Assembly: GCA_045654885.1 (NCBI GenBank)
Contig: JAZOOF010000049.1
Location: forward strand, 658-64,657
Length of the DNA: 64,000 nucleotides
Source: Bacteroidaceae bacterium
Lineage (GTDB): Bacteria; Bacteroidota; Bacteroidia; Bacteroidales; Bacteroidaceae
Direction of reading: 5' to 3'
Shown here: positions 19,079-36,484 of the stretch, in pieces
How positions within the stretch are numbered: position 1 is the first letter of the stretch
How the letters are laid out: every line of letters starts with the position of its first letter
Position numbers and translations under genes: made by a program
The notes under the pieces: generated by a model
Told to the model about the DNA's origin: nothing
Seen by the model: only the letters and a program-made list of their open reading frames with translations
The model's database searches: none

Positions 19079-19093
19079 ATATTGACAGGTTAT

Positions 19094-19171: not shown

Positions 19172-19783
19172 TCATGACGAATGCAGATAGAGTGATGCTT
19201 TGGAGAAATCGCGTTCTTTGAGGCTCTCGACGGGCATCATGAAGTTTATTGTGCCGCAGTCGAAGAAACGCAGATGCCAGCGGTCATCCTCGTCGAGCTG
19301 CAGCAACGATATCATTCCCTCGTTTTCATTCTCATATCCTTCAGTCATTGCGGGCATGCCAAGAAGCTTGAACCCGAAGGCTTCGGTATCACACTCCTCG
19401 AACTCCATCTTTTCGGCGGGCAATACGGCCGGTGAACCGTCCTCCCAATAGTATTGGTGTGTGTTTAGCTTTTCACACTCCTCGGAGTATATAACCTTGA
19501 ACTCTCTCTCTTCCCATTCTCCCATTCCACTGCATGGAGCATCGTCCTCGCCAAGGAAATAGTCCAGGTTGGCAAAGAACCAGAGCATGCCCTTGTGTGG
19601 CAGTGCTCCTTCGGGGTCAAGGTGTGCAATATCCTCCAGACGTATCTGGCATACGAAGGTCAGCAGAAAATCCTCTTCAAGGCATGGCCAGTCGACATTG
19701 TCGGGGAGGTCGGGGAATCCCCACCAATGGCTCTTGCCGGTGAGGTCCTCGTCGGTAGGCTTTATGTTGATGTTTATTGCCAT
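19172..19783 (-). CDS. DUF1963 (YwqG-like) domain protein
   Basis: 203 aa. SHWWGFPDLP...LTFVCQI...MLWFF...FFDCGTINF are hallmarks of the YwqG/DUF1963 family. Confidence 0.7.
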   Translation of the reverse strand: MAININIKPTDEDLTGKSHWWGFPDLPDNVDWPCLEEDFLLTFVCQIRLEDIAHLDPEGALPHKGMLWFFANLDYFLGEDDAPCSGMGEWEEREFKVIYSEECEKLNTHQYYWEDGSPAVLPAEKMEFEECDTEAFGFKLLGMPAMTEGYENENEGMISLLQLDEDDRWHLRFFDCGTINFMMPVESLKERDFSKASLYLHSS

Positions 19784-19817
19784 AGTCTATTGTGTTTTGT
19801 TTGTTGTCATTTGAAGT

Positions 19818-20969
19818 TTATGCCCAAGCATCGTATCGGCCATCGTCATCGGGGAGTTCATCCTCGTCGTCATCGAGCTCCTCGTCATCGGGGATGGCAT
19901 TGTAGGCCGGTATGTGATACATCTCAATCTCGGCGGCAAATTGTGTAAGATGTCCTCTATTGTAAGCCTCTACGGTCTCTACAATCATCCTTTTGCTTTG
20001 GAGTCTGGCACCCAGGAGGGCATAGACATACATGGTCTCTTCGCTGTTCTCGCCGGTCACCTCTTTGCAACGGAGCATGTCATGCATCTTCTCGTAGCAG
20101 CTTGCCATGTTGAACCGTGCGCCCTTCTCATAGTATTCCCATGCCTTGAGATAGTCTACCGTAACTCCATACCGTCCCTCTCTGTGTATGTCGCCAAGCA
20201 GCTTGTACGACATGTCTATGTTGCAACATTCGAGGCACTCGATGATTGACTCGCGGCAACTGTCACGCTCTTCCTTGTCATCGGGGTCAATCTCATCGTA
20301 TGCACTGCACAGGTTCAGTGTCATGAAATGCAGTGAAAGCATGTCGCCCTTGTCGGCGCCCTCTTCAATGGTTGAGGTATAAACATCCCAGTCGGCAATC
20401 TCTCCACCGTCATCGAGTCCACGGACAATGGCAAGGTCGCTGTATGCATCAACCACACCGCCGTCTACAGCCTTCTTGTACCATTCTTCGGCCTCGCGTA
20501 TATTCTTCATGGCAAGCTGTGTGTCACCTTTCAGACGGAACCAGTGCGGGTTGTCGCTCTGCGCCATCAATGCATCAAGGGTCCTGTCGGCAAGGTCAAT
20601 CTCCACGCTGTAGCCATAGCGGCCGAATATCAGGTTCATGAGGTATACGTATGCCGCATACTCATTCTTTTTTTCAAGGGCACTCATCAGCAGCCTTTCT
20701 CCCTCCTTGGGGTTGTATGGCTCAATCTCACCACGGAAATACATGAGCGCTATCTCAACGTCGGCTTCAACCACACCGCCTGCCTGTGCCTTCTTGAGCA
20801 GTCCATATGCGGCGTCCACTGAATCCTGTTCAAAACGATAGGCAAGGTCCACCTTTGCCAGTTTGTAGCATGCAACGGGGTCACCGGCCTGGGCCAGTTC
20901 ATCGAGAACGTCCATGTCATCGGGATTGACATACTGCCTGACTCCCATGTCTGTATAAAATTCTCTCAT
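19818..20969 (-). CDS. Sel1/TPR-like repeat protein with an acidic C-terminal tail
   Basis: Repeated A..YKLA / AQAGG..EA...A.MY-type Sel1-like units. The tail is DDEELDDDEDELPDDDGRYDAWA. The start is set at MREFYTDMG (ATG 20967-20969). Confidence 0.5.
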   Translation of the reverse strand: MREFYTDMGVRQYVNPDDMDVLDELAQAGDPVACYKLAKVDLAYRFEQDSVDAAYGLLKKAQAGGVVEADVEIALMYFRGEIEPYNPKEGERLLMSALEKKNEYAAYVYLMNLIFGRYGYSVEIDLADRTLDALMAQSDNPHWFRLKGDTQLAMKNIREAEEWYKKAVDGGVVDAYSDLAIVRGLDDGGEIADWDVYTSTIEEGADKGDMLSLHFMTLNLCSAYDEIDPDDKEERDSCRESIIECLECCNIDMSYKLLGDIHREGRYGVTVDYLKAWEYYEKGARFNMASCYEKMHDMLRCKEVTGENSEETMYVYALLGARLQSKRMIVETVEAYNRGHLTQFAAEIEMYHIPAYNAIPDDEELDDDEDELPDDDGRYDAWA

Positions 20970-24490: not shown

Positions 24491-25741
24491 TTATTCTGTT
24501 TTAGGGAGCTCTTTATTGTTTATGTTGCTTGTGAGGTACATTACTGCACAAAGGAGCAGGAAGAATACCAGAGAGCCCGAGAGTAGTGCATAGGTCTCCA
24601 TCTGCAGCAGTATATAGTTGAGTACGTACACCAGGGCTACAAATCCGCCAAGCATGTATGCACTACGGTTCTTCAGGATGCCTTTATAGTAGAGCATCAG
24701 TGCGACGGTGGTCATTGATGCAGAAATTGTGTATGCCACACCAAAGGCGATGAACTCGGAGAATGCTATGAGCAACGAGTAGAACAGCACGAGCGACAGG
24801 CCGATTACGGCATATTGGATGGGGTTGATTTCCTTTCGTGTGAGGAACTCTACCAACATGCCGGCTACAAATACCAGAATTATGATGAGCATTCCATATT
24901 TGACAGAGCGCATTGACTGTTGGTAGGGGTTTGCCGGGTCTACAAACTTCACACCCATATCGTAGAAACTTGCACTGTTGTGTTCCGAAGCATTCCATGT
25001 TGCGTAGAAACCATCATCACGCACCTCTCTGCTGTTAGGTAACAGCTCACCCTGAAAGCTTGGGTGCGGGTAGGCAGAACTCATGGCAAGCGATGTGTTT
25101 CCTTCGTCCGAGGGTCTGAAAAAGAGCGATTCTGTACCTTTCAGTTCAAATGAGAATGTAAAATCCACACTGCTGCCGGCCTCTATATTATCCGGTATCA
25201 GGACTACTGCTTCATAATAGTCATTCTTTTTGTTGATGTCGAATGTGCGGTTGCCAAAAGTGAGTTGTGACGGATTACTGAAACCTTTCTGGTCGGTAAT
25301 CTCAAAACGGAATAAGTTCTCTTTTGCTTTGATTGCTTTTTCAGTGACTGTAAACTCTCCCGATACAGTGACTTTAGAGTTGTACACAATCACATCATAA
25401 ATGGAACGATGCAGAATATCTGTCTCTACATTAGCCTTGTAATCAAGCGTTTTACAGTTTTTGCTGTAATCCTCGGCGTACTTATCTTTCTCTATTTCAC
25501 CTTTTACATTTGTAATCTCTATCTCTTCAATGACATGCGAAATCAATTTAGGTGCGAACACTGTCTGCTGTTTGCCATATGAGAAGGCCACCTCTTGTAT
25601 GACCTTATCCTTGGTCTCTTCACGCTCTTCAATGACTCCCGTTATCATAGCCAAAGGGATGAGCATCAACAGTGTTATCAGGGCTACAAAGCTAATCTTG
25701 ATTGCAACTTGTCTTGCATTTGGTTTCGGGTCCTTTTCCAT
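24491..25741 (-). CDS. creD: Cell envelope integrity protein CreD
   Basis: About 416 aa from MEKDPKPNARQ (ATG 25739-25741): an N-terminal TM, a large periplasmic region and a C-terminal cluster of about 5 TM helices, which is the CreD-like architecture. Confidence 0.7.
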   Translation of the reverse strand: MEKDPKPNARQVAIKISFVALITLLMLIPLAMITGVIEEREETKDKVIQEVAFSYGKQQTVFAPKLISHVIEEIEITNVKGEIEKDKYAEDYSKNCKTLDYKANVETDILHRSIYDVIVYNSKVTVSGEFTVTEKAIKAKENLFRFEITDQKGFSNPSQLTFGNRTFDINKKNDYYEAVVLIPDNIEAGSSVDFTFSFELKGTESLFFRPSDEGNTSLAMSSAYPHPSFQGELLPNSREVRDDGFYATWNASEHNSASFYDMGVKFVDPANPYQQSMRSVKYGMLIIILVFVAGMLVEFLTRKEINPIQYAVIGLSLVLFYSLLIAFSEFIAFGVAYTISASMTTVALMLYYKGILKNRSAYMLGGFVALVYVLNYILLQMETYALLSGSLVFFLLLCAVMYLTSNINNKELPKTE

Positions 25742-25838
25742 AGTAATTTTTTTGTTAAATGAATATTGATGTTTGTTTTTATTTGCTATTATAGAGAGTG
25801 CAGATGATGGAATTCTATCAGTGTCGTTGCTAATTTCA

Positions 25839-26522
25839 TTACATGACTTCATACAATATCCCACTGTAGTTGTCGGTGGAGAGTTTCTCGCACATGAACT
25901 TTATCACGTCAACAACATCCTCCAGCGTTTTGTCGTCTTGCAGACGTGCTGCGAGTATCTGTGGCGCCATGGCCTTGTACACACCATCGGTGCAAAGGAA
26001 TATCCTGTCGCCTTTCTCCACCTCAATGCGGGTGATGTCCGGGATTGCAACTTCCGGGTCCATTGAGAAGAAACAGCGTGTAACAATCTCTGTTCCCGGA
26101 CGGGAGTGGTCGGTTGTCTGGTGTACAACCTCGCCATTGCGCAACAGGTAGCATCTGCTGTCGCCGCAATGTGCTATGGTTACCGTGTTATTCTCCACAC
26201 TTGCCATTACGAGTGTTGTTCCCATCTCAATTGGACGTACCATCCTTGAACGGTAGTAAAGAGCTTCGCTTGCATGTGCAAATGCTGTCAATACCTTTTC
26301 CTCGCAATCATTCGTGCCGGGGGTATCTTCCCAGAAATTGCATACAGCATTGCACACAGTCTCGGCTGCTGCATCGCCCATAGCGTGGCCTCCCATGCCG
26401 TCGCACACAACCAGCAGGCAGCGGTTCTCTTCGGGCATTTCAACAACACGGCAAATATCCTGGTTTGCTATTCTCTTGCCGGTCTCGGAGAATACCGTAT
26501 ACATGTATTTCTGTTTTTCCAT
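25839..26522 (-). CDS. PP2C family serine/threonine protein phosphatase
   Basis: 227 aa. NQDICRV...LLVVCDGMGGHAMGDAAA...LCTDGV are PP2C metal-binding motifs. Confidence 0.85.
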   Translation of the reverse strand: MEKQKYMYTVFSETGKRIANQDICRVVEMPEENRCLLVVCDGMGGHAMGDAAAETVCNAVCNFWEDTPGTNDCEEKVLTAFAHASEALYYRSRMVRPIEMGTTLVMASVENNTVTIAHCGDSRCYLLRNGEVVHQTTDHSRPGTEIVTRCFFSMDPEVAIPDITRIEVEKGDRIFLCTDGVYKAMAPQILAARLQDDKTLEDVVDVIKFMCEKLSTDNYSGILYEVM

Positions 26523-26567: not shown

Positions 26568-26607
26568 AACAAACGGCAGAATCTATCATCCGATTCTGTC
26601 GTTTGTT
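26568..26607 (-). terminator. Terminator-like hairpin between the RyR gene and the PP2C gene
   Basis: aacaaacggcagaatc-tatcatcc-gattctgtcgtttgtt (one G-T pair), followed by a T-rich tract on the minus strand. Confidence 0.55.
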
Positions 26608-26625: not shown

Positions 26626-26916
26626 TTACTCTTTCGTAATCTTGAATCCCAGTTTTGTTATCAGTTTCAGGGTTCCAAAAGCTGTGTCGCGGTCATATGC
26701 CTTCTCCACCTCGGGCAGCTCCTCGTAGGGCACCAGGCAAGGGTGGGTCTTCAAGGTGTCATTGCGCTCCTCGCCATAGGCCCAGCCCTGCTCCATTCGG
26801 CTCTGCGCCCACACGTCGTGTACGTTTTTTGCAATCTTTTCTACAAGCTCATCCAACTCTGCCGGCAACTGTACGTCATTTGTGTTCACCGGCTGCGGTA
26901 CATAATTCTTTTTCAT
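26626..26916 (-). CDS. Stand-alone RyR (ryanodine-receptor repeat) domain protein
   Basis: 96 aa. LVEKIAKNVHDVWAQSRMEQGWAYGEERNDTLKTHPCLVPYEELPEVEKAYDRDTA matches the RyR-domain consensus (HE.W...R...GW.YG......K.HP.LVPY.EL...EK..DR). Confidence 0.85.
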   Translation of the reverse strand: MKKNYVPQPVNTNDVQLPAELDELVEKIAKNVHDVWAQSRMEQGWAYGEERNDTLKTHPCLVPYEELPEVEKAYDRDTAFGTLKLITKLGFKITKE

Positions 26917-26987
26917 TGTTCCTTGTGTTTTGGGTTTTTATATTATAGAACAATTTCTGATGCGGAATCTGTCAGCGTATATAAAAT

Positions 26988-28766
26988 TTATATTTGTTCT
27001 GTCAAGTCAAGGAAACCAACAATGTCGGTGTCTGTTATCTGCTTTTTGTGTTCAACAAACTTTCCGTCTGTCAATCTCAAGAATGTGATATCGCCTTTGT
27101 CGTTGGTTGTGTATGCCGTTTTCAGTTCTTCAAGATTTTTTATTTCATTACCATCATATCCAATGATTATATCGCCTTTCTTAAATATTGCATGTGTTTC
27201 ATCACCGTATATTGCATGTATTGTCACTCCTGAATATTCACGTTTGCCTTCTGCAATTTCAATAAAAAACTGCTTTGCCGAAGCTACATAATCTTTGCTT
27301 TCGGGATAACACTCTTCAAATGTAGTGAGCATAGACTTTATGTTGCTATAAGCTGTCATGGGGTTGATTGACGCTTCCTTACCTGCATCGAGTTCTTTAA
27401 ATCCGTAATACACTAATGAAATATCGTTCAAGAATCCTCCCCAGTAACGGATTTTAAGCCATTTGAGCCCTTGCTCATCTGCAGCCTGTATAGTGCACAT
27501 TTTCTTTATTTCATCATAATCTTGCACGTTTGTGCTGTCATATTCCAAAAGCTTTTTCAGATAGACATTGTTGAGAGAATCCAGTTTTATTTCTGACTTG
27601 TACAGTTCATCTTCGGCTTTTTTGTTGTCTTCATTCATTTCAGATACATAACCCGATAATTGTTCAAACTCCTGTTTAATTAAAATCTCATATTCCGACT
27701 CTTTTGCTCCCAAAGCTGTTTTTGGCATATTGACAAATTTTGAACGGAGTTCATTGCTTTCCTCCAGGACTGATTCCGGCAACTTGCTTATGATTTGTAA
27801 ATATGAGTAATATAGAATGTTTCCTAAATGTGTTAATTCTTTGAAACTCATATCAATTAGTTTCAATTCGGATGGAAAAAGATTGTTGTCTTCGGTTTCA
27901 GTGGTCAGTTCTGTGATTAGCTCTATTGTTTCATTGATGAACATATACATTGTTGACAAATGCTCATTGACGGAATGTGATTCAAATTCATTTATACCAT
28001 ACAATGAAAGAAGGAATTTTTGCCAAGCTGTGTATTTTACACTTGCAATACTGTTACTCTTATAATATTCAATATTGCTTTTGATAACATCTATTTGAGA
28101 AAACAAATCATCCTTATTGCTGTTCGATTTATATTCATCCATAGCTAAGGCAAGTTTCTTGTTGTCATCTATCAGAAAGTCTGCTATACCGGCGTATAGT
28201 GTCTGGTGTTGTGCGAACTCTTTGCATAACGGTTTTGCTATTGAACGGAAAACGAAGAAGAGTGAAAGAAGTATTGCGGCGATGGATAGCGTGGAGAGAA
28301 TGAACCATTTAGCAAAAATCCTCTGTTTGGTATGTCTTGTACTGCTCAAATAGCTTTCAAGGCGTTTCATAGACATATCGAAATACTCAATTGAACCGGC
28401 TGCAACAGCCTGGTAGTTGCGTAGCTCTTCCATACCTTGCGGCATTGGATTCGGCCATACAAAGCCGCTGAGCATTACCGGTATAATGTTTTTTTTGTGA
28501 CTCATTGCGCACAACACCTCTTTGCGCACCCAGTCTTCTTCATTGCTACACCGTTCGAGAGCATCAGTGGGTAATACAATAACAAAGTCACGACATCCTT
28601 CTATTATATTGAACAATTGTTCATTGAATGGTCCCGAGCGCATAGATTCGAGGTCAAAGAATACTCTGTATCCGGCCGATTTCAAGCGTGTCGCTATCAG
28701 GTTTGCTGTTTCGTAAGAACTGCGGCGGTAGCTTATAAAAATATCATAATTATGTTTCATCGTCAT
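26988..28766 (-). CDS. TIR domain - single TM - long helical region - PDZ-like domain protein
   Basis: The N-terminus YDIFISYRRS...FFD...FVIVLP...WVRKEV is a TIR fold with the conserved Glu. A TM helix follows (WFILSTLSIAAILLSLFFVF), then about 330 aa of helical sequence and a C-terminal PDZ-like module GVTIHAIYGDETHAIFKKGDIIIGYDGNEIKNLEEL. Confidence 0.85.
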   Translation of the reverse strand: MTMKHNYDIFISYRRSSYETANLIATRLKSAGYRVFFDLESMRSGPFNEQLFNIIEGCRDFVIVLPTDALERCSNEEDWVRKEVLCAMSHKKNIIPVMLSGFVWPNPMPQGMEELRNYQAVAAGSIEYFDMSMKRLESYLSSTRHTKQRIFAKWFILSTLSIAAILLSLFFVFRSIAKPLCKEFAQHQTLYAGIADFLIDDNKKLALAMDEYKSNSNKDDLFSQIDVIKSNIEYYKSNSIASVKYTAWQKFLLSLYGINEFESHSVNEHLSTMYMFINETIELITELTTETEDNNLFPSELKLIDMSFKELTHLGNILYYSYLQIISKLPESVLEESNELRSKFVNMPKTALGAKESEYEILIKQEFEQLSGYVSEMNEDNKKAEDELYKSEIKLDSLNNVYLKKLLEYDSTNVQDYDEIKKMCTIQAADEQGLKWLKIRYWGGFLNDISLVYYGFKELDAGKEASINPMTAYSNIKSMLTTFEECYPESKDYVASAKQFFIEIAEGKREYSGVTIHAIYGDETHAIFKKGDIIIGYDGNEIKNLEELKTAYTTNDKGDITFLRLTDGKFVEHKKQITDTDIVGFLDLTEQI

Positions 28767-28805
28767 TTTGCTTTTATTGTATTTAAATAAGTGTTGGAAC
28801 CGATA

Positions 28806-29534
28806 TTACAGTTTCGTCATCTCTATGTTTTCGGTACTATCCCTTAAAATAAGTTCCTTGATTCTGCTACCTCCATACTTCCACATCTTGTGGCAGAATA
28901 CCAGAAATACAATTGTTAGAATGCCACTGATGGCAGGTGTTACGTCTGTTATGAACAATATTGAATCGTAGAGTCCATGAACGATGATAGGTGCAACCAA
29001 TATAAGAATCTTATTCTTCAATGGTGTCTTGGGATAGAATTTGGCAAGTGAATAATAGTATCCCATAAGTATGCCGAAACAGAAATGTCCGGGCACGGCG
29101 AATATGGCGCGGGTGATACCTACCGACAGATATGATTCTACATTAGAGAACAAGTACATGATATTTTCTAATGCAGCGAAACCAAGCGAAATGCATACTG
29201 CATATACAATACCGTCCATCTTTTCGTCAAAGAATCTGTTTTTGCGCAGCACCAACCATAATAGGAAAAACTTGGCAATCTCCTCGGGTATCGCTGCACC
29301 AAAGAATGTCGCACTCACACTTCCAAAGATGCTTGTCGCCTCAGTAGGATATACACCAATCAATCCTAATGGTATTGACATACAAAAGGACAATGGAATA
29401 GACAATATTCCATAAAAGAATGCTTTTAACAATTGTCCTGTTGGCTCTGGTGATTTCTTGTCCTTTTGGTATATATAATACACAAGGATAGCTATGGGTA
29501 GTAGCGCGGTTAGAAAAATTATTATTGGTTCCAT
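28806..29534 (-). CDS. PrsW family intramembrane metalloprotease
   Basis: 242 aa, multi-TM, with the signature motifs IPEEIAKFF, GFAALEN and VHGLYDS. Confidence 0.85.
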   Translation of the reverse strand: MEPIIIFLTALLPIAILVYYIYQKDKKSPEPTGQLLKAFFYGILSIPLSFCMSIPLGLIGVYPTEATSIFGSVSATFFGAAIPEEIAKFFLLWLVLRKNRFFDEKMDGIVYAVCISLGFAALENIMYLFSNVESYLSVGITRAIFAVPGHFCFGILMGYYYSLAKFYPKTPLKNKILILVAPIIVHGLYDSILFITDVTPAISGILTIVFLVFCHKMWKYGGSRIKELILRDSTENIEMTKL

Positions 29535-29548
29535 TTTTTGTTAAAGGT

Positions 29549-31051
29549 CTATTTCTTAAAAATAGATTTAAGTCGTTGAAAGAATGTTTTATGTACTTCG
29601 GAATCCTGTTCTTGTGAGTTATCAATCACGACGTTTTTACTCTCTCTATTTGATTCATAGTTAAAGGAACCTTCATTCTGTTTTACTTGTTTAGATTGCA
29701 AGAATCTGTTTTTATTATTCTTAAGATTAAGAAAATATAACAAGTTGTCCTTGTAATTTTCAGTTGTAAAACATTGTTTATCTCTAAGCCAAGCAGGAAT
29801 ACTATGGATATTGATTTCAGATGATAGAATATTAACAATTTTTGCGTTTGGCTTATGTCCTGTATTTATGTCATTTACAAAAGTGTGCCACTCTGCAGCA
29901 ACATATGGTGTCTCAATATAATCAATACGAGTCGCAAAAACGATCATATTGTCACATACATTTATCACTTCTCCTATAAGAGCTGTATATTGGTCAATTC
30001 CTATTTCTTTAATAGACTTATCTGCAAGAAAAGGCCTAAAACCATTAGAATCCAAGAATTTATATAAATCATATGCTAATGCATAATCTTGGCTCTTACA
30101 TGAAATGAATATATCGAAACCTCGCTCGTTGATTTCGTTGCGTATTTTTTCTATCACCCTAGAAATACGAGCTTTACGTGTTCTTACCAAATCCCATATC
30201 TGCAATATGGCGCTATAATAATTCTTGGTATCTTGTATCAATGTTATTAAACTCTCTCCGTGGTGGGAGTTAAGCGAAATATCTAAACGTTCTATTGATT
30301 TTTCTCTAATAAAGTGCAGTTCTTCATTTGGAAAAAGTACACTTTCATCTTCACCTTGAACCACAAGTGTAGGATTTTCTTCTAATTTTACCTTGAAGTA
30401 TTGTATATCTCTATCTCGTTCATTTGCTTTCTCGTCCATTCCTAGTTGTAACTCCTTTGCTTTTTTCCTTTCCAATCTTTGTAATGCAATATTCCAAGAT
30501 TTACGTTTTTCATTTCTTCTATCAACATCTTGTTGTAAAATAACATTTCTACGTCTTTCACTATTATATTGAGAAACAATAGCATTGTTGTCTTCCAAAA
30601 ATGAATGCAAAATATTTAGGGGTGTGAGAAAATCCTCAAGATCATTATAGTTATATATAGTAAAAACTTGCGGTTTTATTTTTTTATCCCGACTAATAAG
30701 AATGAATGCTGGGAGACTTGAACGAAGCAGCCCAAAATGATTACAGATATCATCGGCTGTTTGCATTGTTACACTAACACCCTCACCATATAGAGGGTGC
30801 CAATCAGATAAATTTTTCACCCATCTCGTCAGGTTTTCGTTCATTTTATCATATGAATTATTGATGAAATAAAAAAAACATATTCTATTCCCTGTTATGC
30901 GGTCTATTCTCCATGCATTATCAACTATTTCACGGAGGATACTTTTGTCATTATCATCGAAACTACTTACAAAAAGTAGCATAAGGTCATATTGATATTG
31001 ATAATAGAACCTATCAAGGACTTGATCAAATTTTAGGGGTGTTACGAACAT
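29549..31051 (-). CDS. TIR domain protein with an unknown N-terminal domain and a coiled coil
   Basis: Residues ~311-430 (nt 29762-30121) read FDIFISCKSQDYA...FLADKS...MIVFAT...YVAAEWHTF, a TIR fold with a Glu. Residues 160-225 are charged coiled coil. I do not recognise the N-terminal 150 aa. Confidence 0.8.
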   Translation of the reverse strand: MFVTPLKFDQVLDRFYYQYQYDLMLLFVSSFDDNDKSILREIVDNAWRIDRITGNRICFFYFINNSYDKMNENLTRWVKNLSDWHPLYGEGVSVTMQTADDICNHFGLLRSSLPAFILISRDKKIKPQVFTIYNYNDLEDFLTPLNILHSFLEDNNAIVSQYNSERRRNVILQQDVDRRNEKRKSWNIALQRLERKKAKELQLGMDEKANERDRDIQYFKVKLEENPTLVVQGEDESVLFPNEELHFIREKSIERLDISLNSHHGESLITLIQDTKNYYSAILQIWDLVRTRKARISRVIEKIRNEINERGFDIFISCKSQDYALAYDLYKFLDSNGFRPFLADKSIKEIGIDQYTALIGEVINVCDNMIVFATRIDYIETPYVAAEWHTFVNDINTGHKPNAKIVNILSSEINIHSIPAWLRDKQCFTTENYKDNLLYFLNLKNNKNRFLQSKQVKQNEGSFNYESNRESKNVVIDNSQEQDSEVHKTFFQRLKSIFKK

Positions 31052-31145
31052 ATCTATAGGAATGTCTGAATTAAAATTATATTAAAGAAGAATCAAAATG
31101 CTAACAATTAACAGTTCGCAAAAACTCTCATTTACTATATCACTT

Positions 31146-31153
31146 CAAAATTA
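31146..31153 (-). promoter_or_regulatory. Candidate internal -7 promoter element (TAATTTTG on minus) in the 211-nt gap of the island
   Basis: caaaatta on the plus strand, about 95 nt upstream of the ATG at 31051. This is the only sizeable intergenic gap inside the cluster. Confidence 0.25.
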
Positions 31154-31262
31154 TATACTTCTTTCATATCACTTGGCAGGTCAGCACGTGGCTCAATACT
31201 GATAGGGCATATTTTTAATGTTGCATCCCTTTGACTGAGTTGAGGATATGCCAAAAGTTCCG

Positions 31263-31724
31263 CTATTTAAAAACCATTCCTCTAATCTCCTCCCCAATAG
31301 CCTCTTCAAGGAAATCACATCTTGCGCAAAGGAGCAGCTCGTGGGTATACTCCTCTAGCATGGCTTTATAGTATGTGACATCTTTGTGATTGGTGTGTGT
31401 TATTCTTTCCCAAAGTGTCTGCTCCACTGCATCTTTATATGCATTGTCCACCGTTTCTCTGTCATCATCGGTCATTAGCTGGCGCAGCTTAGGGTGATTG
31501 AGAATATCTTCTAGCGAGCGTGGGTCATTGGGCGCTATCTCTTGCCAAAGTGCCCGCAGGAACTCTTTGTATTCACATTCTATTCTCAATGGTAGTTCTT
31601 TGTCATATTCTCCTATGCTTTCGGGCTGCTCATGGGCTGCTTCATTGACAATGTTTCCAAAGTATTTGTCAAGTATCTCCCTCTCTTTCTTTATGCACAG
31701 TTCTTTGATTTGCGTTTTGTCCAT
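31263..31724 (-). CDS. Hypothetical protein (helical, acidic), island-specific
   Basis: 153 aa from MDKTQIKELC (ATG 31722-31724). The longer ORF would overlap the upstream gene. No recognisable family. Confidence 0.5.
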   Translation of the reverse strand: MDKTQIKELCIKKEREILDKYFGNIVNEAAHEQPESIGEYDKELPLRIECEYKEFLRALWQEIAPNDPRSLEDILNHPKLRQLMTDDDRETVDNAYKDAVEQTLWERITHTNHKDVTYYKAMLEEYTHELLLCARCDFLEEAIGEEIRGMVFK

Positions 31725-31789
31725 GATATTTTTTATGCTACAAGAGTGTATGAATTGTTTGATGAGATGAAAGTTGAATATAGCTTGTT

Positions 31790-32926
31790 TTATTCGTACA
31801 ATGACCAGTCGATGTCTATCTTGTGTCCACACTTATCACAGAACACCTGTTTCTTGTAGATGATTGCATTGCACTTGGGGCAGTGGAACTCCTGCTGTGA
31901 GTTACGGATGCGCTCTCTTAGTATTCTGTAAAGTTCAGTGTCTTCGCGCTTAATCAAATCATAACCCAATTTCTTCAGCAGCTTGATTGTGTCCATGGCC
32001 ATGTTGCGGTCGAAATCCTTTTCTTTCTCAGGCAGTTGTGAATAGGGTACCATGCAAGGGTTCTCTTTCTTGGCATCGTTACGCTCCGGTCCATAGCTCC
32101 AACCTTGTGCAAGGCGTTCAGCAGCCCATACTTCGTGGGCATTCTCCGCAATTGCTTCACGCAGTTCGTTCAGGTCCTCTGCCAGTTGTACATCTGTCAG
32201 GTCAATAGGTCTTGGAGTGTATGTTTTCATATCTTTTGTGTTTATGGTTACTAAATAGTTTTTTGAATCGTTCCATGCATCGACGAATTGTTCGATGGGG
32301 TATGTGTCCTCGCTGTTTGGTGAGTTGGGGTCATGTATTATCACGCAATTGTTGACTGTGTCACAGGAGAGGACAACCACTGTGTGGTCGGGAACCTCAC
32401 CAATCAATATGTCCTCGATAATCTCTTCGGTTCTATTCCCCAGTAACTCTCCGCCATCAACGGCAACTATTACGCTATCATTTGCATTGAGAGCATTTGC
32501 TATATCGTCAAAAGAGGCATTATATTGGCGGGCAACAGCAAGGCCTTTTGCCTCTAAGTGGCGTCCTACATTATGTAGCGCAGTTCCGGTTTCTTTCTGC
32601 CAACCATTTTTAATTGCATTTTGCAGCAGTTGTTCTTCGTCAAACTCTATATTAAACTTGCGGAGTATATATTTCTCACACTCAAGGCTGCATAAATTCT
32701 CGCTGTTGCATGTGGCTGCAATAGCCGTCATTGGGATAGGCTCGCATTCATTGGGCAGTTTTCCCAATTCGGCGTCTACTAATTGAGAAATACGTAGCAA
32801 TTCTCTTAATTCAGCATCGTGGGGTAGTGTTTCGAGTATCTCTTTGCACTCCTGTGCGCTCGCATTTCCCTCAAGGAATGCTGCCAACACCTCTGCCGGG
32901 ATGTTATTTACCGATTTCTTCTTCAT
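31790..32926 (-). CDS. Anti-sigma-like N-terminus fused to a C39/papain-like peptidase domain, a RyR domain and a C-terminal zinc ribbon (no TM segment)
   Basis: Residues are numbered from the long ORF start at 32950. The N-terminus LAAFLEGNASAQECKEILETL is anti-sigma-like. Residues ~75-235 carry Cys (NLCSLEC), His (PDHTVVV) and Asp (IHDPN) in papain/C39 order. Residues ~255-335 are a RyR domain (AENAHEVWAAERLAQGWSYGPERNDAKKENPCMVPYSQLPEKEKDFDR). The ribbon is CPKC...CDKC. The gene overlaps the sigma gene by 23 nt. Confidence 0.75.
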   Translation of the reverse strand: MKKKSVNNIPAEVLAAFLEGNASAQECKEILETLPHDAELRELLRISQLVDAELGKLPNECEPIPMTAIAATCNSENLCSLECEKYILRKFNIEFDEEQLLQNAIKNGWQKETGTALHNVGRHLEAKGLAVARQYNASFDDIANALNANDSVIVAVDGGELLGNRTEEIIEDILIGEVPDHTVVVLSCDTVNNCVIIHDPNSPNSEDTYPIEQFVDAWNDSKNYLVTINTKDMKTYTPRPIDLTDVQLAEDLNELREAIAENAHEVWAAERLAQGWSYGPERNDAKKENPCMVPYSQLPEKEKDFDRNMAMDTIKLLKKLGYDLIKREDTELYRILRERIRNSQQEFHCPKCNAIIYKKQVFCDKCGHKIDIDWSLYE

Positions 32927-33473
32927 ACTTCCCAATCTCCTTAAGTGCAATTTCAGTCAAGGCTGCAATGGCACGTTTTTTTATGTTATACAAATTGTCT
33001 ACATTGGTCATTAGTTCCGCAGCCACAACCTTTGGCTCGGCTTCTTCCAGGACCAATCGTCTTATTACATGGACATAGCGCTTGTTCGGCATCATTGAAA
33101 ACAGGTGCTCTATATCCATTTTTGCATTAGTCGCCGCCTCATTGACGGTGTCTTCATGTATCTCATTCTCAAAAAGATTCACTTTGGGTTCCATATCTAT
33201 CATGTTATTGCGCTTTGCAATAAAGTAGCGAATAGCAATTACTTTCATCCACTGATAGATAGTGCTACGACCTTGGAACTGTCTTAAACGATATGCATCG
33301 TTTTCCATTAGGTGCAGATAGAATTCGTTTACAAATTCATCGTAGTCAACCTCATAGGAGAATACATTACGCATTATGCTCATGAAAAGCGGGCGGCAAC
33401 TCTTGAAAAAGAACTGCTGCGTCACTCGCTCGTCCCGAGCAATCAATGCTTCAATTATTTGTTGGTCGGTCAT
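32904..33473 (-). CDS. RNA polymerase sigma-70 family (ECF-type) factor
   Basis: 189 aa. Region 2 (DYDEFVNEFYLHLMEND...YQWMKVIAIRYF) and a region 4 HTH (RYVHVIRRLVLEEAEPKVVAAELMTNVDNLYNIKKRA). Confidence 0.8.
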   Translation of the reverse strand: MTDQQIIEALIARDERVTQQFFFKSCRPLFMSIMRNVFSYEVDYDEFVNEFYLHLMENDAYRLRQFQGRSTIYQWMKVIAIRYFIAKRNNMIDMEPKVNLFENEIHEDTVNEAATNAKMDIEHLFSMMPNKRYVHVIRRLVLEEAEPKVVAAELMTNVDNLYNIKKRAIAALTEIALKEIGKYEEEIGK

Positions 33474-33479
33474 TGTTTG

Positions 33480-36008
33480 TTACTCTTTAAGATATGATGT
33501 GTACGCTGTAGGCAACACTTTTATCAACGTTTCGTCCAGTTCCATTACGTTGCAATCAATTTCTTTCAATTTGCTGTTTGAACAGATATCAAGATGAGCA
33601 AAATTCTTTTTTAATCTATTTTTCTCCATAGCAGACGAATAAAGGTCGGTAATTTTTGCTTTCATCTGTTCGTCGTATGTTAAAGGACGGTAGCGCAGCA
33701 ACAATTGCTCTAAAACCCATCTGTTGTGTTCTACTTCTCCCAATTTTTTCATCATTGAACCTTCAAATCCTTTTGACGGGTCTGTTCCAAAACATCTGAA
33801 TTTACTGAACATTGAATAGATGTTATACTGATTTGACCACATCTTTGCAGACTTTGGTTTATCGTTGGTTTTATACATATTGGCTCTGGGATATTTAAAA
33901 GATTCCATTACTTCAGAATATTTTATTTTTCCACGGTTTTCTTTTATCCACTCGTCACATCCTTTTTTGATTTTTTCTTTATTCTTGTCAGAACTTATGC
34001 TATAATAACCATTGGAGATTTTATCATAATCTTCGTCTGTCAATTTTTTATAGCGCTTTTTCATCTGCTCCCAAACAAATTGGTCATATGCATCTCCAAC
34101 TTTTTTGGAAATACTTTCTGCCATCTCTGTTAAAGAAAGATTATAGCATTTTTTTGCCATTCCAAAAGCTTTGAGTTTTTCTGAATATCTGCCTTTATAG
34201 TTTATTTGATTGAGCAGTTCGTCGTCTAATCTTTGATAAACCAATACTTGTTGTGTAGAAGTTTCTTCATATATACAACTCGGTAAATATGTAGCAGCTG
34301 CTATTGCACGACTATTTTCTGGCAGACATATTGCAATTGTCATTTTTGCATTCATGTTTCTGCTTGCATCTTCCAGATATTTTTGTATAGCCGGATTTTC
34401 AACAGAACCATTTATGAATTCCCACTCAATGTCAAGGAAGTCACCTCCCAGGTAGTCAAAACCAACCGGGATGTGGATGTCCTGTGGATTCCATTCCAAG
34501 ACTCCGTTTTCATTGATGTTGCCATATCGCCAATGTGAAAGCGCAAACAGTTCCTTGAAACGTCCTATGAAGAAGTTCTTTTCCTCTGCTGCATTCTTGT
34601 CTATGAAGGTGATTTTTGTACGTATCTGTTTATTCTCATAATTTGGATAGTGGCATAAATGTGCTGCTTCTATTGCCATAGCCACTCCCATGCGTGACAT
34701 TCCTACAATTACAAGATGTACAAAATTATTGTCATCTGGTTTTATGCCATCAAATCCTTCAAGAGGCAAATACTTGCCATTTCCTTTAAGTTCTTGGCAT
34801 ACAAGAACATTTTGAGCCCACATCTCATAGTAATTGAAGGGCAGGAACTTTATTTTATCAACATTGATATCTGTTACTTGAAGAACATTGAATGAGGTCT
34901 GGTATTCGAACATAACGCGACAAACCAGTTCTTCCCCTTTCTTGAATGCTTGGGAATTTTTGATTTCGTCATTGATTAATCTCAAACATTTCATGTTCAT
35001 TGTGTCATGATACGACTCAATGTCATCGGTTCTTGTATCCTCGCCAATGACAAAAACTTCTATTGCATTCTCAATGTGTAAATATGCAATGTCATCTTTA
35101 GAAGTGCGGTTGCCATAATATATGATTATATGTTTCTGTTGCTCCTCTGTCAGTCCCGAGAAGAGTTCACGCCTGAAGCTTTCTACATCGCGTAGGGTTT
35201 GGATAACTATGTAAGGCAACTTTTTGACCTTGTTATTGACGAACAGCTCGCTGACGATTCCAATGGCAACATCGTTTCCACCAATGACTATGTAGAATTT
35301 CTTTTTTGCTCTACGTAGAAAACGTTTGTATTTGACCTCTCCTTTTAGCCATTGCTCCCTGCGTCGGTCAATCCAACTGATGAGCATTGAAATCAATAGG
35401 CCGTTAAGGAGAAGAAAACCCAATGTGGCAATAATGCTGGAAATGATACGCCCTCTGTGCGTTGTTGTCATATGTTGGTTCCCCGGGTCGATAAAATGGT
35501 AGTATACAGTCCACAACAGTGATGGGTTTTCCTGTTTTTCCTTTATAGAGTCCGGCAAGTTTGATTGCTTGAGTATGGTGCAACTCTTTCCTTCTTCATT
35601 GCATGTTATGATACCTAATGTGTCTATTCCTGAATACTCCTCTTTATATAGATTATCTTCGTAGACCAATTCTTTGCTTGATAGGCATTGATAATCTTCT
35701 TTGGCACAATGTTTGTCGGTAATGGCGATGTTGACAAGATGAACGATTGCTGTGATTGTTACAGGTATGAACAATACAAATTTTATGACCTTGCCCAAGA
35801 AGTTTCCTCTTGTCAAAAGCCAATCACGTTTTATGGGTTTGCAGAAAACAATAAAGTACCGTATGCAGTATATGAGACCAATAGCACCGACAATGATTTC
35901 AAAACACTGTTTCTGCCAAAAGATACCAACTACATACGTAATTATACATATGGCGAGTAATGCGATTTCTAAAAATTTCCAAATAATATTCTTTATTGTA
36001 TTGCGCAT
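33480..36008 (-). CDS. Multi-TM protein with a CASTOR/POLLUX-like pore motif, two Rossmann/RCK-like modules and a divergent RyR-like C-terminus (putative ligand-gated cation channel)
   Basis: 3 N-terminal TM helices, a Cys-containing loop, then LLWTVYYHFIDPGNQHM followed by a TM helix (a pore-helix/filter/inner-helix arrangement). FYIVIGGNDVAIG and HLVIVGMSRMGVA are Rossmann-type beta-alpha starts. The C-terminal GEVEHNRWVLEQLLLRY...AHLDI...L.E resembles the RyR/TrkA-N-RyR architecture. Confidence 0.65.
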   Translation of the reverse strand: MRNTIKNIIWKFLEIALLAICIITYVVGIFWQKQCFEIIVGAIGLIYCIRYFIVFCKPIKRDWLLTRGNFLGKVIKFVLFIPVTITAIVHLVNIAITDKHCAKEDYQCLSSKELVYEDNLYKEEYSGIDTLGIITCNEEGKSCTILKQSNLPDSIKEKQENPSLLWTVYYHFIDPGNQHMTTTHRGRIISSIIATLGFLLLNGLLISMLISWIDRRREQWLKGEVKYKRFLRRAKKKFYIVIGGNDVAIGIVSELFVNNKVKKLPYIVIQTLRDVESFRRELFSGLTEEQQKHIIIYYGNRTSKDDIAYLHIENAIEVFVIGEDTRTDDIESYHDTMNMKCLRLINDEIKNSQAFKKGEELVCRVMFEYQTSFNVLQVTDINVDKIKFLPFNYYEMWAQNVLVCQELKGNGKYLPLEGFDGIKPDDNNFVHLVIVGMSRMGVAMAIEAAHLCHYPNYENKQIRTKITFIDKNAAEEKNFFIGRFKELFALSHWRYGNINENGVLEWNPQDIHIPVGFDYLGGDFLDIEWEFINGSVENPAIQKYLEDASRNMNAKMTIAICLPENSRAIAAATYLPSCIYEETSTQQVLVYQRLDDELLNQINYKGRYSEKLKAFGMAKKCYNLSLTEMAESISKKVGDAYDQFVWEQMKKRYKKLTDEDYDKISNGYYSISSDKNKEKIKKGCDEWIKENRGKIKYSEVMESFKYPRANMYKTNDKPKSAKMWSNQYNIYSMFSKFRCFGTDPSKGFEGSMMKKLGEVEHNRWVLEQLLLRYRPLTYDEQMKAKITDLYSSAMEKNRLKKNFAHLDICSNSKLKEIDCNVMELDETLIKVLPTAYTSYLKE

Positions 36009-36057
36009 ATGTGGAACCGGTGTTTGTCAAAAAAAAGTAAATAGAATTCAACAAATG

Positions 36058-36065
36058 CAAATATA
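36058..36065 (-). promoter_or_regulatory. Candidate -7 promoter element for the island operon (TATATTTG on minus)
   Basis: caaatata on the plus strand, about 50 nt upstream of the ATG at 36008, in a very AT-rich 270-nt intergenic region. Confidence 0.35.
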
Positions 36066-36277: not shown

Positions 36278-36484
36278 ATGGTAACACCTGATATAGAATG
36301 CTCAACCATGGACGAGCGACGTGCTTTTGTACAGGCTCAGTGGCAGTGTATGGGAAATTGCGAGCTGTGTGGCAAATGCCACATACTCAAGGGACGTGAC
36401 CCCGAGTCGCTTTATGCCGACTATATCAATGGCAAACGCTCATATATCGATGTTACATTGAGTATAAGGAACAATAATCGTTAA
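36278..36484 (+). CDS. Small Cys-rich hypothetical protein
   Basis: 68 aa with [15 protein letters not shown] (4 Cys). No family recognised. Confidence 0.45.

Follow-up and report, generated by a model that had tools for sequence, protein, structure and literature searches.

RyR domains encoded alongside TIR proteins in gut Bacteroidales as candidate receivers of a TIR-made nucleotide signal

We identified in the window (the whole 64,000-nucleotide stretch of Bacteroidaceae DNA that was analyzed) a gene island that has the appearance of a bacterial signaling system not described before, in which RyR domains would read ADP-ribose nucleotides made by TIR proteins. The locus is, in our judgment, probably a Thoeris-like TIR nucleotide-signaling conflict system with RyR (PF02026) as the signal receiver, and the use of RyR as a host-side receiver domain appears to be its novel element. 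The idea that the RyR modules read a TIR product and couple it to several outputs came from the preliminary description of this DNA and is well supported by four independent lines: genomic linkage, domain fusions, an experiment on phage homologs and residue conservation. The locus matched none of the Thoeris effector models in PADLOC and NCBIfam, PADLOC holds no model for the system, and the searchable literature returned no description of a RyR/TIR system of this kind; RyR, PF02026, PrsW and Peptidase_C39 are also absent from the text and the available supplements of a systematic TIR survey. We know of no phage-defense phenotype for the system.

Linkage of RyR and TIR genes across genomes

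TIR and RyR genes are linked in related loci. Among species-representative genomes, one or more TIR genes lay within 10 kb downstream of the C39 peptidase homolog in 19 of the 24 loci where this homolog carries a RyR domain but in none of the 13 where it does not (Fisher p = 2.4e-6, a value that ignores kinship among the loci). TIR genes stood upstream in a single locus, and five of the 24 RyR-bearing loci had no TIR gene inside the 10 kb span. The two domains also meet in one polypeptide, in at least six clusters of TIR–RyR fusions (39–72% identity). PrsW–RyR fusions exist elsewhere, and RyR–TPR-S proteins occur directly adjoining TIR genes; such pairs recur in unrelated contexts, once as a minimal operon between housekeeping genes. 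The fusion partners of RyR comprise the C39 peptidase, PrsW, a ~730-aa protein, TPR-S, TIR and possibly a channel, and joining to many different partners is the pattern expected for a ligand-sensor domain. The TIR–RyR fusions fit equally well a TIR acting as NADase effector downstream of RyR.

The system is widespread in gut Bacteroidales, modular and co-directional, and its gene order is kept in loci of Bacteroidaceae, Rikenellaceae, Muribaculaceae, Prevotellaceae and others. The array combines an RCK-gated channel-like protein, an ECF-like sigma factor and an anti-sigma-like/C39-peptidase/RyR fusion with Glu-intact TIR proteins accompanied by PrsW or M48 proteases, a 96-aa RyR protein and a PP2C phosphatase. 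Its TIR/protease portion is rapidly exchanged. The core genes are 94–97% identical to their nearest relatives (the channel-like protein, and the C39-RyR match in locus L015), and in L015 the TIR and protease cargo is wholly different despite the near-identical core. The cargo genes of the island are low in GC, consistent with frequent cassette exchange. Across loci the TIR proteins bear varied extra domains (Sel1, FGE-sulfatase, methyltransferase, PDZ/TM), an ADP-ribosylglycohydrolase gene is present in related loci, and envelope-linked accessory genes (M48, CreD, PDZ-like) surround the system.

Components of the gene array

All genes of the cluster lie on the minus strand, tightly packed. The first encodes an 842-aa membrane protein (33480–36008), and 40 nt upstream of its ATG is a Bacteroidetes-type -7 promoter-like motif, TATATTTGCA (36056–36065, minus strand), so called by its likeness to the published Bacteroides promoter consensus, TAnnTTTG. 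The TAnnTTTGCA form of the motif also precedes the counterpart gene in about 10 other loci; a scan of the window returned 9 matches (3.8 expected), none of them within the cluster. TATATTTGCA possibly drives the entire co-directional array.

The preliminary description had called the 842-aa protein channel-like, a label borne out by structure prediction. According to the transmembrane (TM) scan and AF2 model (pLDDT 85.4, pTM 0.79), three TM helices at the N-terminus are followed by a turret that contains Cys, by a pore helix and filter-like loop, and then by an inner helix and a tandem pair of RCK domains. The best Foldseek matches in the PDB were GsuK, in entries with ADP and with NAD bound, Slo1/BK, Slo2.2, the CASTOR gating ring and MthK (prob 1.0, E no better than 5e-8). 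On this model, the protein is probably a ligand-gated tetrameric cation channel; hardly any of its more than 1,100 homologs are annotated. GsuK, the closest structural match, has been crystallized with ADP and with NAD+. The predicted outer helix, pore helix, filter loop, inner helix and RCK1-RCK2 order is common to GsuK, MthK, Slo1/BK, Slo2.2, CASTOR and POLLUX, although sequence identity to these channels is only ~10% and the 842-aa protein adds two N-terminal TM helices, the Cys-containing turret and the C-terminal RyR-like domain. It also differs in the pore region (aa 163–221; 35346–35522, minus strand), defined from the AF2 helix layout and conservation among 59 homologs, where the pore helix is followed by the loop F172-I-D174-P-G176-N177-Q-H179 and an inner helix whose NGLL hinge is conserved. 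The TVGYG potassium filter is absent from this loop; its IDPGNQH motif is conserved throughout, with D174, G176 and N177 invariant and P175, Q178, H179 and M180 at least 90% conserved, and resembles the ADAGNHA filter of CASTOR/POLLUX.

Three RyR modules had been counted in the preliminary description, and the two peptide strings that it quoted occur exactly in the proteins. Two of the modules are secure (PF02026 at 9e-37 and 4.6e-34); the third, proposed for the C-terminal domain of the 842-aa protein (aa 750–842; 33483–33761, minus strand), was not firmly confirmed. This domain had no Pfam match even at E ≤ 10 and no hhalign match, and Foldseek returned nothing significant for its AF2 model. 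Orthologs reach Pfam RyR at a sub-threshold E of 0.003, and an HMM built from canonical RyR domains only matched the orthologous C-termini at 1e-10 to 1e-6 and the copy in the window at E 0.019 (31-sequence database), the latter as two collinear pieces flanking an insertion of ~20 aa. The pattern H761..W764..H805..D818/D825 does not vary within the family, and these family-level similarities hint faintly that the domain could be a divergent RyR copy.

Downstream lies the gene for a divergent 189-aa ECF-type sigma factor (32904–33473, minus strand), which matched NCBIfam TIGR02937 at E 6e-10 with 38.9 bits, below the 42.9-bit cut-off, and had no match in Pfam. It is always paired with the C39 gene, RyR-less relatives included, and in the window the likely ATG of the latter, at 32926, overlaps it. 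The C39 gene (31790–32926, minus strand; a 386-aa ORF from 31790 to 32950 if opened at TTG 32950) encodes a fusion of an anti-sigma-like segment, a C39_2 peptidase, RyR and a zinc ribbon, with Pfam matches to RyR (4.6e-34) and, more weakly, to Peptidase_C39_2 (4e-4) and Zn_Ribbon_1 (1e-4). The TM scan found no TM helices in it, consistent with a cytoplasmic protein. C87, H189 and D207, invariant in the homolog alignment, would form the catalytic triad of a papain-like peptidase. The anti-sigma assignment of the N-terminus is suggested by its LAAFLEGNAS... motif, by the gene coupling and by sub-threshold RseA_N and zf-HC2 matches, found in homologs only. The next gene (31263–31724, minus strand) encodes a protein of ~153 aa with no assigned function, probably starting at M37 of a 189-aa ORF; it had no match in Pfam, NCBIfam or PADLOC, and its family is a recurrent accessory, found in seven species-representative loci and each time within the array.

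The two TIR proteins described earlier, each with a conserved Glu, were confirmed, and the Glu column is kept in all 56 TIR domains gathered from related loci. The first is a soluble 500-aa protein (29549–31051, minus strand) with no assigned domain in its first 300 aa and a C-terminal TIR_2 (aa 309–432, nt 29756–30127; Pfam 6e-8, custom TIR HMM 7e-22) that carries E387. The second is a single-pass membrane protein of 592 aa (26988–28766, minus strand; Pfam TIR_2 1.2e-13), composed of a cytoplasmic TIR (aa 7–139, nt 28350–28748; W79 and E83), a TM helix (155–173) and a ~420-aa extracytoplasmic region ending in a weak PDZ-like segment (Pfam PDZ_2 1.7e-3). In phmmer its TIR matched that of human SARM1 at E 6e-25 (36% identity over 135 aa), with E83 aligned to the Glu of the WVHKE motif, which by our residue count is the catalytic E642. 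Between the two TIR genes is a 242-aa PrsW-family intramembrane protease (28806–29534, minus strand) with five predicted TM helices, supported by Pfam PF13367 (3.8e-36) and, under the equivalog cut-off, by NCBIfam PrsW (1.9e-39); PrsW recurs beside genes of the 592-aa type. As in the Bacillus subtilis Sigma-W/RsiW/PrsW system, a PrsW-family protease is here encoded with an ECF-like sigma factor, an anti-sigma-like protein and envelope-linked accessory genes, but it adjoins a membrane-anchored TIR, and the anti-sigma-like fusion, having no TM segment, is not an obvious PrsW substrate. The array ends with the 96-aa RyR gene (26626–26916, minus strand) and, at its distal end, a PP2C-type Ser/Thr phosphatase (25839–26522, minus strand; Pfam PP2C_2 3.9e-18), which is also terminal in L006–L008 and L016 and is likely an accessory or reset component.

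RyR ligand residues and the 96-aa protein

The preliminary description regarded the ligand of bacterial RyR domains as unknown, a statement now outdated. A May 2026 preprint reports that phage RyR-domain (PF02026) proteins bind 2'/3'cADPR at nanomolar affinity or hydrolyze them, with H75, W78, H100 and D117 as ligand-contacting residues (PMC13232231). The 96-aa protein is a RyR domain end to end (Pfam PF02026, E 9e-37), matches PDB entries 3NRT, 4N05 and 6UAG ('putative ryanodine receptor') at ~1e-35, shares 45% identity with RyR1 repeat 1 (R12 domain) and has more than 3,500 homologs, the best 120 listed being 79–98% identical. Its H33, W36, H58 and D75 align exactly with H75, W78, H100 and D117 of Baudelaire gp81, a RyDEP ortholog, and all four RyDEP ligand and catalytic positions are present. 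In the RyR domain of the C39 fusion (aa 244–332; 31955–32221, minus strand) the corresponding residues are H272, W275, N297 and D314, three of which match RyDEP while N replaces H100. Among 35 C39-RyR homologs, H, W and D are invariant; nine have H at the fourth position, that of the phosphate-contacting His, and the other 26 carry N or T there, suggesting that ligand or affinity may differ.

Pfam family, ligand residues and the small stand-alone form are thus shared by the 96-aa protein and phage RyDEP, and this likeness lends weight to a reading in which the RyR modules, chiefly the 96-aa protein, are quenchers or immunity factors. As glycosidases or sponges for stray TIR products, they would prevent self-intoxication or end the response, in the manner of the ring nucleases of type III CRISPR, and the true effectors would be the proteases, the RCK-gated channel or the TIR NADases. 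Both binding residues and the catalytic H/D dyad are intact in the 96-aa protein, the phage homologs behave precisely as sponges or glycosidases, and the host-like GC content and strong conservation of the 96-aa gene are expected of a housekeeping regulator. The SAVED sensor of CalpL, itself a ring nuclease, can also degrade its own ligand (PMC11417357). The dyad, however, is no predictor of catalysis: six of the eight phage homologs tested bound signals and none but RyDEP cleaved them, their conserved residues notwithstanding (PMC13232231). The covalent joining of RyR to output-type modules (C39 peptidase/anti-sigma, PrsW, TPR-S, the ~730-aa protein) is also hard to reconcile with pure quenching. 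RyDEP itself is phage-encoded and counters host TIR signaling, whereas the RyR proteins of this locus are chromosomal, stand in operon-like, co-directional packing with host TIR genes and are mostly fused to output domains, the C39 fusion with N at the H100 position. As an account of all the RyR modules we consider quenching unlikely; for the 96-aa protein alone it is compatible with the receiver model. The preliminary description had named this protein a small adaptor; its RyR identity stands, but in place of an adaptor it could be a quencher of the signal, either sponge or glycosidase.

Proposed signaling chain, precedents and remaining alternatives

In the receiver model, the variable TIR proteins would be the sensors, and the 592-aa TIR a transmembrane receptor whose PDZ-like part lies outside the cytoplasm and which the adjacent PrsW may process. 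Upon phage attack or envelope damage, the TIRs would use NAD+ to make a cyclic isomer of ADP-ribose or a related derivative of ADPR. Binding of this signal by the RyR domain of the fusion would activate the papain-like peptidase, which would destroy or release the anti-sigma-like N-terminus and free the ECF-like sigma factor. The signal might also open the 842-aa RCK channel, via its RyR-like C-terminus or its RCK domains, and cause cation flux or depolarization. The 96-aa RyR protein, with its H/D glycosidase dyad, would buffer or hydrolyze the signal and set the threshold, and together with PP2C would reset the system.

The closest parallel is Thoeris (types I–XI), in which Glu-intact TIRs, often several and diverse, likewise stand beside a conserved set of small-molecule-binding genes. 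Thoeris signals are cADPR isomers, with canonical cADPR in types VII and VIII (10.64898/2025.12.03.692087). The locus differs in its receiver (RyR rather than SLOG, Macro, SLATT, TPR or another known domain), in the number of its putative receiver proteins (at least three), in the transcriptional nature of its proposed output, and in its size (~9 genes versus 2–3). By analogy, a precedent for the proposed sensor-protease-anti-sigma-sigma chain is CalpL-CalpT-CalpS of type III CRISPR (cA4-activated SAVED-Lon protease, anti-sigma, ECF sigma), where a nucleotide sensor on a protease is genetically coupled to an anti-sigma/ECF-like sigma pair and an immune second messenger is converted into transcription. 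There is no sequence homology between the two: RyR takes the place of SAVED, a papain-like C39 that of Lon and TIR that of Cas10, and anti-sigma and protease share one chain here. The clustering of a SARM1-like TIR (catalytic Glu and Trp kept), a RyR1-like 96-aa protein and a cation channel also recalls the animal SARM1/cADPR/RyR system, but the bacterial channel is of the RCK and not the RyR type, the TIR is without the SARM1 ARM and SAM domains, and cADPR binding by animal R12 domains is still unproven.

The same TIRs could instead be NAD+-depleting effectors, with RyR sensing another adenine nucleotide, NAD+/ADPR levels or some other cue and the sigma/anti-sigma pair merely governing TIR and protease expression. 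Many TIRs of bacteria act as NADase effectors, cases that Yirmiya et al. explicitly filtered out (10.64898/2025.12.03.692087). SARM1-type TIRs consume NAD+ strongly, and the TIR–RyR fusions are similar to sensor-effector proteins like TIR-SAVED. The R12 domain of animal RyR3 is reported to bind ligands that contain adenine (PMC13232231). We nevertheless find this explanation quite improbable. The TIRs are the variable, multi-copy part, with diverse extra domains, and the RyR-bearing core is the conserved part, a pattern like that of the Thoeris ThsB sensor and unlike that of a conserved effector. Before the first gene stands a promoter-like motif of housekeeping type, no sigma-specific internal promoter was seen, and RyR domains homologous to these show specificity for the cADPR isomers that TIRs make (PMC13232231). 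Last, a chance meeting of separate TIR and RyR systems in one variable defense island, for which the low GC, the swappable cargo, the five RyR-bearing loci with no nearby TIR and the stand-alone 96-aa RyR genes away from TIR genes (as in L014) could speak, is very improbable and largely refuted by the one-sided downstream linkage, the tight co-directional packing, the conserved single-chain fusions and the RyR-TPR-S and TIR pairs in unrelated contexts.

A TIR-RyR cluster and its candidate ligand residues

The cluster genes are all encoded on the minus strand and are closely packed in the gene calls of the window, starting in transcription order with the gene of an 842-aa membrane protein (33480-36008) and ending, as the ninth gene, with that of a 227-aa PP2C phosphatase (25839-26522; Pfam E 3.9e-18). 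We think it probable that attack or envelope damage is sensed by the variable TIR proteins, which produce an ADPR-type nucleotide that RyR domains receive. Binding of this ligand to the RyR domain of a 386-aa protein (third gene, 31790-32950) would switch on the C39-like peptidase in the same chain, and the active peptidase would free a 189-aa sigma factor (second gene, 32904-33473) from the anti-sigma-like N-terminus. The 842-aa protein, a predicted channel, would be a second output of the signal, and the 96-aa protein RyR96 (eighth gene, 26626-26916) would serve as a buffer or off-switch. By analogy, the proposed peptidase and sigma release mirrors the logic of CalpL/CalpT/CalpS.

Against a Pfam gathering score of 27.4 bits for the RyR family (PF02026), RyR96 matched over its full length with 125.6 bits (E 9e-37) and the 386-aa fusion (C39-RyR) matched at residues 244-332 with 117 bits (E 4.6e-34); the RyR peptide strings quoted in the preliminary description occur in the window letter for letter. 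That description took the ligand of bacterial RyR domains to be unknown, a view now overtaken by the RyR link to cADPR isomers, which is already known from RyDEP, a mycobacteriophage PF02026 defence-evasion protein that acts as a glycosidase opening 2'cADPR and 3'cADPR (PMC13232231, preprint of May 2026). Residues H75 and D117 of RyDEP form the catalytic dyad, with W78 stacking on the adenine and H100 in contact with the phosphates (PMC13232231). The RyDEP orthologue Baudelaire gp81, encoded between NARP1 genes, gives H75, W78, H100 and D117 in its own numbering. Aligned with gp81, RyR96 has all four ligand and catalytic residues (H33, W36, H58 and D75), and the counterparts in the 386-aa fusion (H272, W275, N297 and D314) match three of the four. 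The HWHD set was found in 15 of 19 small RyR proteins, in all six proteins of a roughly 730-aa type and in all three PrsW-RyR fusions; the C39-RyR proteins retain H, W and D, and in 26 of 35 the phosphate position is N or T. By its residues, RyR96 fits a putative RyDEP-type binder or glycosidase of cADPR isomers.

Six of eight phage RyDEP homologues form stable complexes with 2'/3'cADPR, and the two studied most closely are sponges with nanomolar affinity (PMC13232231). A reading of the RyR domains as purely quenchers would extend this behaviour to all RyR modules of the cluster; we consider it unlikely, with RyR domains also fused to a C39-like peptidase in the window and to PrsW or TPR-S elsewhere. 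A RyDEP-style, phage-encoded anti-Thoeris role does not apply to the RyR genes of the window, because they are chromosomal and have no phage genes nearby.

RyR96 shares 57% identity with the RyR-like repeat of bacterial origin in the 6UHI chimera and 45% with RyR1 repeat 1, and crystal structures exist for close homologues of the protein. We take the 6UHI bacterial repeat to be that of the B. thetaiotaomicron 'putative ryanodine receptor' (PDB 3NRT and 6UAG). Whether ryanodine-receptor repeats bind cADPR is a long-standing question in calcium signalling, for which RyR96, encoded beside a SARM1-like TIR protein, could provide a simple soluble model. A 66% identical RyR gene is present in MT837259 (locus L014), an unverified GenBank record labelled 'Bacteriophage sp.', where it stands alone with no TIR gene within the record's 12 kb. 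We rejected this record as evidence of phage RyR carriage: it encodes glycosyltransferases, an O-antigen-ligase-like protein, RidA and a primase-like protein, and looks like bacterial or mobile-element DNA.

TIR proteins and known TIR systems

Pfam placed a TIR_2 domain at the N-terminus of the 592-aa TIR592 (seventh gene, 26988-28766; E 1.2e-13) and at the C-terminus of the 500-aa TIR500 (fifth gene, 29549-31051; E 6e-8). Both retain the conserved Glu (E83 and E387, respectively), as had been noticed earlier, in a column that is invariant in all 56 TIR domains collected from related loci, E387 included. TIR592 resembles the TIR domain of human SARM1 (phmmer against PDB sequences, E 6e-25; 36% identity across 135 residues), including the WxxxE motif, but lacks the ARM and SAM domains. 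Because its WVRKE pairs with the WVHKE of SARM1 in the alignment, we take E83 to be the counterpart of the catalytic E642 and, by residue count, W79 that of W638. A transmembrane helix at residues 155-173 would leave ~420 C-terminal residues, with a weak PDZ-like match at their end, outside the cytoplasm, giving TIR592 the look of a putative receptor with a cytoplasmic TIR domain. The TIR domain of TIR500 had no sequence match in the PDB.

The window cluster shares with Thoeris the presence of TIR proteins with a catalytic Glu, yet none of the described effector families (ThsA SIR2-SLOG and Macro-TM among them) is encoded beside the TIR genes, and the Thoeris effector models of PADLOC and NCBIfam matched no cluster protein. 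Matches bearing on Thoeris in these collections were limited to the TIR domain (TIR-containing SAVED and pAgo models and Thoeris type III ThcB4), and PADLOC had no system-level model for the cluster, matching only TIR and PP2C fragments. Alternatively, the TIR proteins could themselves be NADase effectors, with the RyR domains serving a different ligand; we find this improbable.

A systematic TIR survey of December 2025 lists 29 putative types of Thoeris and validates types V-XI; in its accessible text and supplements there is no mention of RyR, PF02026, PrsW or C39 (Yirmiya et al., 10.64898/2025.12.03.692087). The RyDEP preprint, which deals with viral proteins only (PMC13232231), was the single find in a search, outside subscription journals, for papers linking RyR to TIR, to PrsW, to conflict systems or to B. 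thetaiotaomicron. Since none of these sources reports one, a host-encoded TIR system with an RyR receiver and with sigma-switch and RCK-channel outputs appears to be undescribed in the literature searched. So far, RyR domains have been shown to bind TIR signals only in phage evasion; in the hosts they may act as native receivers of these signals, apparently connected to such uncommon outputs as a sigma-factor switch, intramembrane proteases and an RCK cation channel. Bacteria, plants and animals share TIR-derived nucleotides as immune signals, and every receiver domain newly recognised has led into a further branch of this field. Gut and rumen Bacteroidales, which defence-system catalogues cover poorly, commonly carry the system.

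Predicted sigma switch and cation channel

The 189-aa protein had no Pfam match and matched TIGR02937 below the cut-off (E 6e-10), which makes it a putative, divergent ECF-type sigma factor; its gene coupling to C39 is conserved. No recognisable anti-sigma domain was matched in the window's 386-aa protein, the anti-sigma-like N-terminus of which bears the motif LAAFLEGNAS and has homologues with sub-threshold matches to RseA_N (0.021) and zf-HC2 (0.0016). The Peptidase_C39_2 match of the 386-aa protein (21.3 bits) falls below the 24-bit cut-off, which homologues exceed (41.4 and 29.4 bits), and the Cys/His/Asp residues C87, H189 and D207 are invariant in alignment A2. Pfam also found a zinc ribbon in this protein. 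The 242-aa protein (sixth gene, 28806-29534) matched PF13367 with 124.9 bits (E 3.8e-36; cut-off 23.5 bits) and the NCBIfam PrsW equivalog with 135.5 bits; because the latter's cut-off of 225 bits is not reached, its sequence assigns it to the PrsW family and not to PrsW orthologues.

The AF2 model of the 842-aa protein, a confident one (pLDDT 85.4, pTM 0.79), had its best Foldseek matches (E 5e-8 and weaker, prob 1.0) in GsuK, ADP- and NAD-bound entries among them, Slo1, Slo2.2, the CASTOR gating ring and MthK. From the N-terminus, the protein has two extra transmembrane helices, an outer helix, a Cys-containing turret, a pore helix, an invariant IDPGNQH loop, an inner helix, two RCK domains and a C-terminal helical domain. 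Because of this domain layout and the structural matches, the protein, which has more than 1,100 homologues, is predicted to be a pore-loop, RCK-gated cation channel. It shares the order of pore loop and RCK domains with RCK-gated potassium channels but has the IDPGNQH loop instead of a TVGYG-type filter, a loop that we take to resemble the ADAGNHA filter of CASTOR/POLLUX.

The preliminary description also named a third RyR copy at the C-terminus of the 842-aa protein, for which the orthologues score far better than the window copy. A canonical-only RyR HMM scored orthologue C-termini at E values from 1e-10 (best) to 1e-6, Pfam RyR gave orthologues 18 bits (E 0.003), and an H..W..H..D pattern is invariant across the family's C-termini. 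The same HMM reached only E 0.019 on the window copy, in two collinear pieces. Pfam at E<=10 returned no RyR match for seven C-termini of the family, the window's own included, and hhalign none when the C-terminal family alignment was compared with a shallow alignment of RyR. A Foldseek search of the isolated C-terminal 127 aa (AF2, pLDDT 73) against PDB and BFVD gave nothing significant, the non-significant RyR entries at E 6-10 being RyR1 4ett (rank 4, E 9.5) and a phage RyR protein (rank 5, E 6.3). The RyR assignment of the window copy is weak.

A bolder proposal is that the Bacteroidales island is a living relative of the source of both halves of the animal SARM1/cADPR/ryanodine-receptor axis: a SARM1-like TIR protein would make cyclic ADP-ribose, RyR repeats would bind it directly, the signal would gate the co-encoded tetrameric cation channel, and the R12 repeats of animal RyRs would be true cADPR-isomer sites inherited from bacterial TIR immunity. 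We regard this as doubtful; if true, it would settle the decades-old question of cADPR action on RyRs.

Related loci and gene linkage

We used custom HMMs and phmmer to annotate the contexts of diverse 842-aa homologues, together with 47 loci of species-representative genomes. A single system, modular and co-directional, emerged across Bacteroidaceae, Paraprevotella, Rikenellaceae/Alistipes, Muribaculaceae, Prevotellaceae, Odoribacter and others, with animal guts as the main source. The usual order is channel, sigma, C39-RyR, a variable block and a 96-aa (or 291-aa) RyR protein, frequently followed by PP2C. The variable block encodes one to four TIR proteins, with added parts (Sel1, FGE-sulfatase, methyltransferase or TM/PDZ) or in forms of more than 1,000 aa, plus PrsW or else an M48 protease that comes with two small proteins. 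Some loci add the roughly 730-aa protein with RyR at its C-terminus (Pfam 7e-7), and some TPR-CHAT or an ADP-ribosylglycohydrolase-phosphatase fusion. The core genes of the window are 94-97% identical to those of the closest relatives, among which L015 has a 94% identical C39-RyR match; its cargo, compared over 6940-20000 with window positions 26626-36008, is wholly different. The window cargo comprises a gene for a roughly 150-aa protein (fourth gene, 31263-31832), TIR500, PrsW, TIR592 and RyR96; L015 has in their place M48, two small genes, two TIRs (one short, one of 454 aa) and a 1,164-aa protein from a family whose other members have an N-terminal TIR. Whole cassettes are swapped between loci, a pattern typical of conflict systems.

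Linkage of TIR and RyR genes in related loci, which had been proposed as a check, was borne out. One or more TIR genes lie downstream in 19 of 24 loci with an RyR-bearing C39 homologue and at least 5 kb of downstream sequence, and in none of 13 with an RyR-less homologue, relaxed threshold included (Fisher p=2.4e-6, a value uncorrected for kinship of the species); upstream TIR genes occur in one locus only. Co-location of TIR and RyR by chance is essentially excluded. No alternative sensor domain was recognisable in the RyR-less C39 homologues. In six Prevotellaceae loci (L047 and L049-L053), sigma and anti-sigma-like/C39 pairs were seen without RyR and without nearby TIR genes.

The partners proposed for TIR-to-RyR signalling also occur in single polypeptides. 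A search of 1.84 billion representative proteins, followed by Pfam, identified a 519-aa chain (P0313) with TIR_2 (4e-20) and RyR (1.6e-34) and at least five further TIR-RyR clusters at 39-72% identity, for at least six in all (P0313, P0391, P0392, P0394, P0396 and P0465); the TIR-RyR gene in locus L062 (599-2158) is followed by a NACHT-type NTPase gene. PrsW is fused straight to a canonical RyR domain in L044 (10467-11519), P0321 and P0361. The search also found RyR-TPR-S proteins (TPR-S sensor domain, PF20308). In L067 (8001-11911), a gene of this type is directly followed by a TIR gene, with housekeeping genes on both sides, in what looks like a minimal two-gene operon; in L068 (400-5939), the order is M48, two small genes, RyR-TPR-S, one more gene and TIR. 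The cADPR-activated type VIII Thoeris effector has a TPR domain, possibly other than PF20308, that was earlier predicted for TIR signalling (Yirmiya et al., 10.64898/2025.12.03.692087).

Two further gene arrangements were observed. A recurrent three-gene module (L004, 15803-17482), found in 15 of 31 RyR-type species-representative loci, encodes two zinc-ribbon proteins, an M48 peptidase and one of 169 aa, along with an 85-aa protein; the window, with PrsW, has no such module, and some loci have both. A 564-aa fusion of ADP-ribosylglycohydrolase and dual-specificity phosphatase, encoded between the 96-aa RyR gene and PP2C in L006 (13181-14875) and also found in L007 and L008, fits with ADP-ribose chemistry in the system.

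The GC content is 38% across ~26.6 to 36.0 kb versus 48-50% in the flanks. Because it is uneven gene by gene within the island (0.32 in TIR500, 0.37 in the channel gene and TIR592 and 0.39 in PrsW, with 0.51 in the 96-aa RyR gene and 0.50 in PP2C at the level of the flanks), composition suggests a recent cargo and an older RyR/PP2C end. The scan found no tRNA genes, and no integrase was seen at the island borders. We rejected the cluster as a prophage or anti-defence island: it has no phage genes, the array is sigma-linked and co-directional, and it occupies a conserved insertion site, with comF-like/prmC-like genes on one side and housekeeping genes on the other. Scans of the window for sigma-70 promoters and terminators did not rise above shuffled sequence; they included a T-tailed, terminator-like hairpin on the minus strand (26577-26598), ~28 nt past the RyR96 stop and before PP2C. 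A gene for a CreD-family inner-membrane protein adjoins the system in three differently annotated Bacteroidales taxa (window, 24491-25864; L018, 3166-4461; L037, 18334-19569) and is either a peripheral member or a coincidence. Several loci have a P-type cation-transporting ATPase on either flank (L006, 16591-19344; L009, 1-2655) that is missing from the window, where the 898-aa neighbour (39203-41899), considered as its equivalent, proved to be a TonB-dependent receptor. On the plus strand, a 68-aa Cys-rich ORF (36278-36484) diverges from the channel gene across a common intergenic region.
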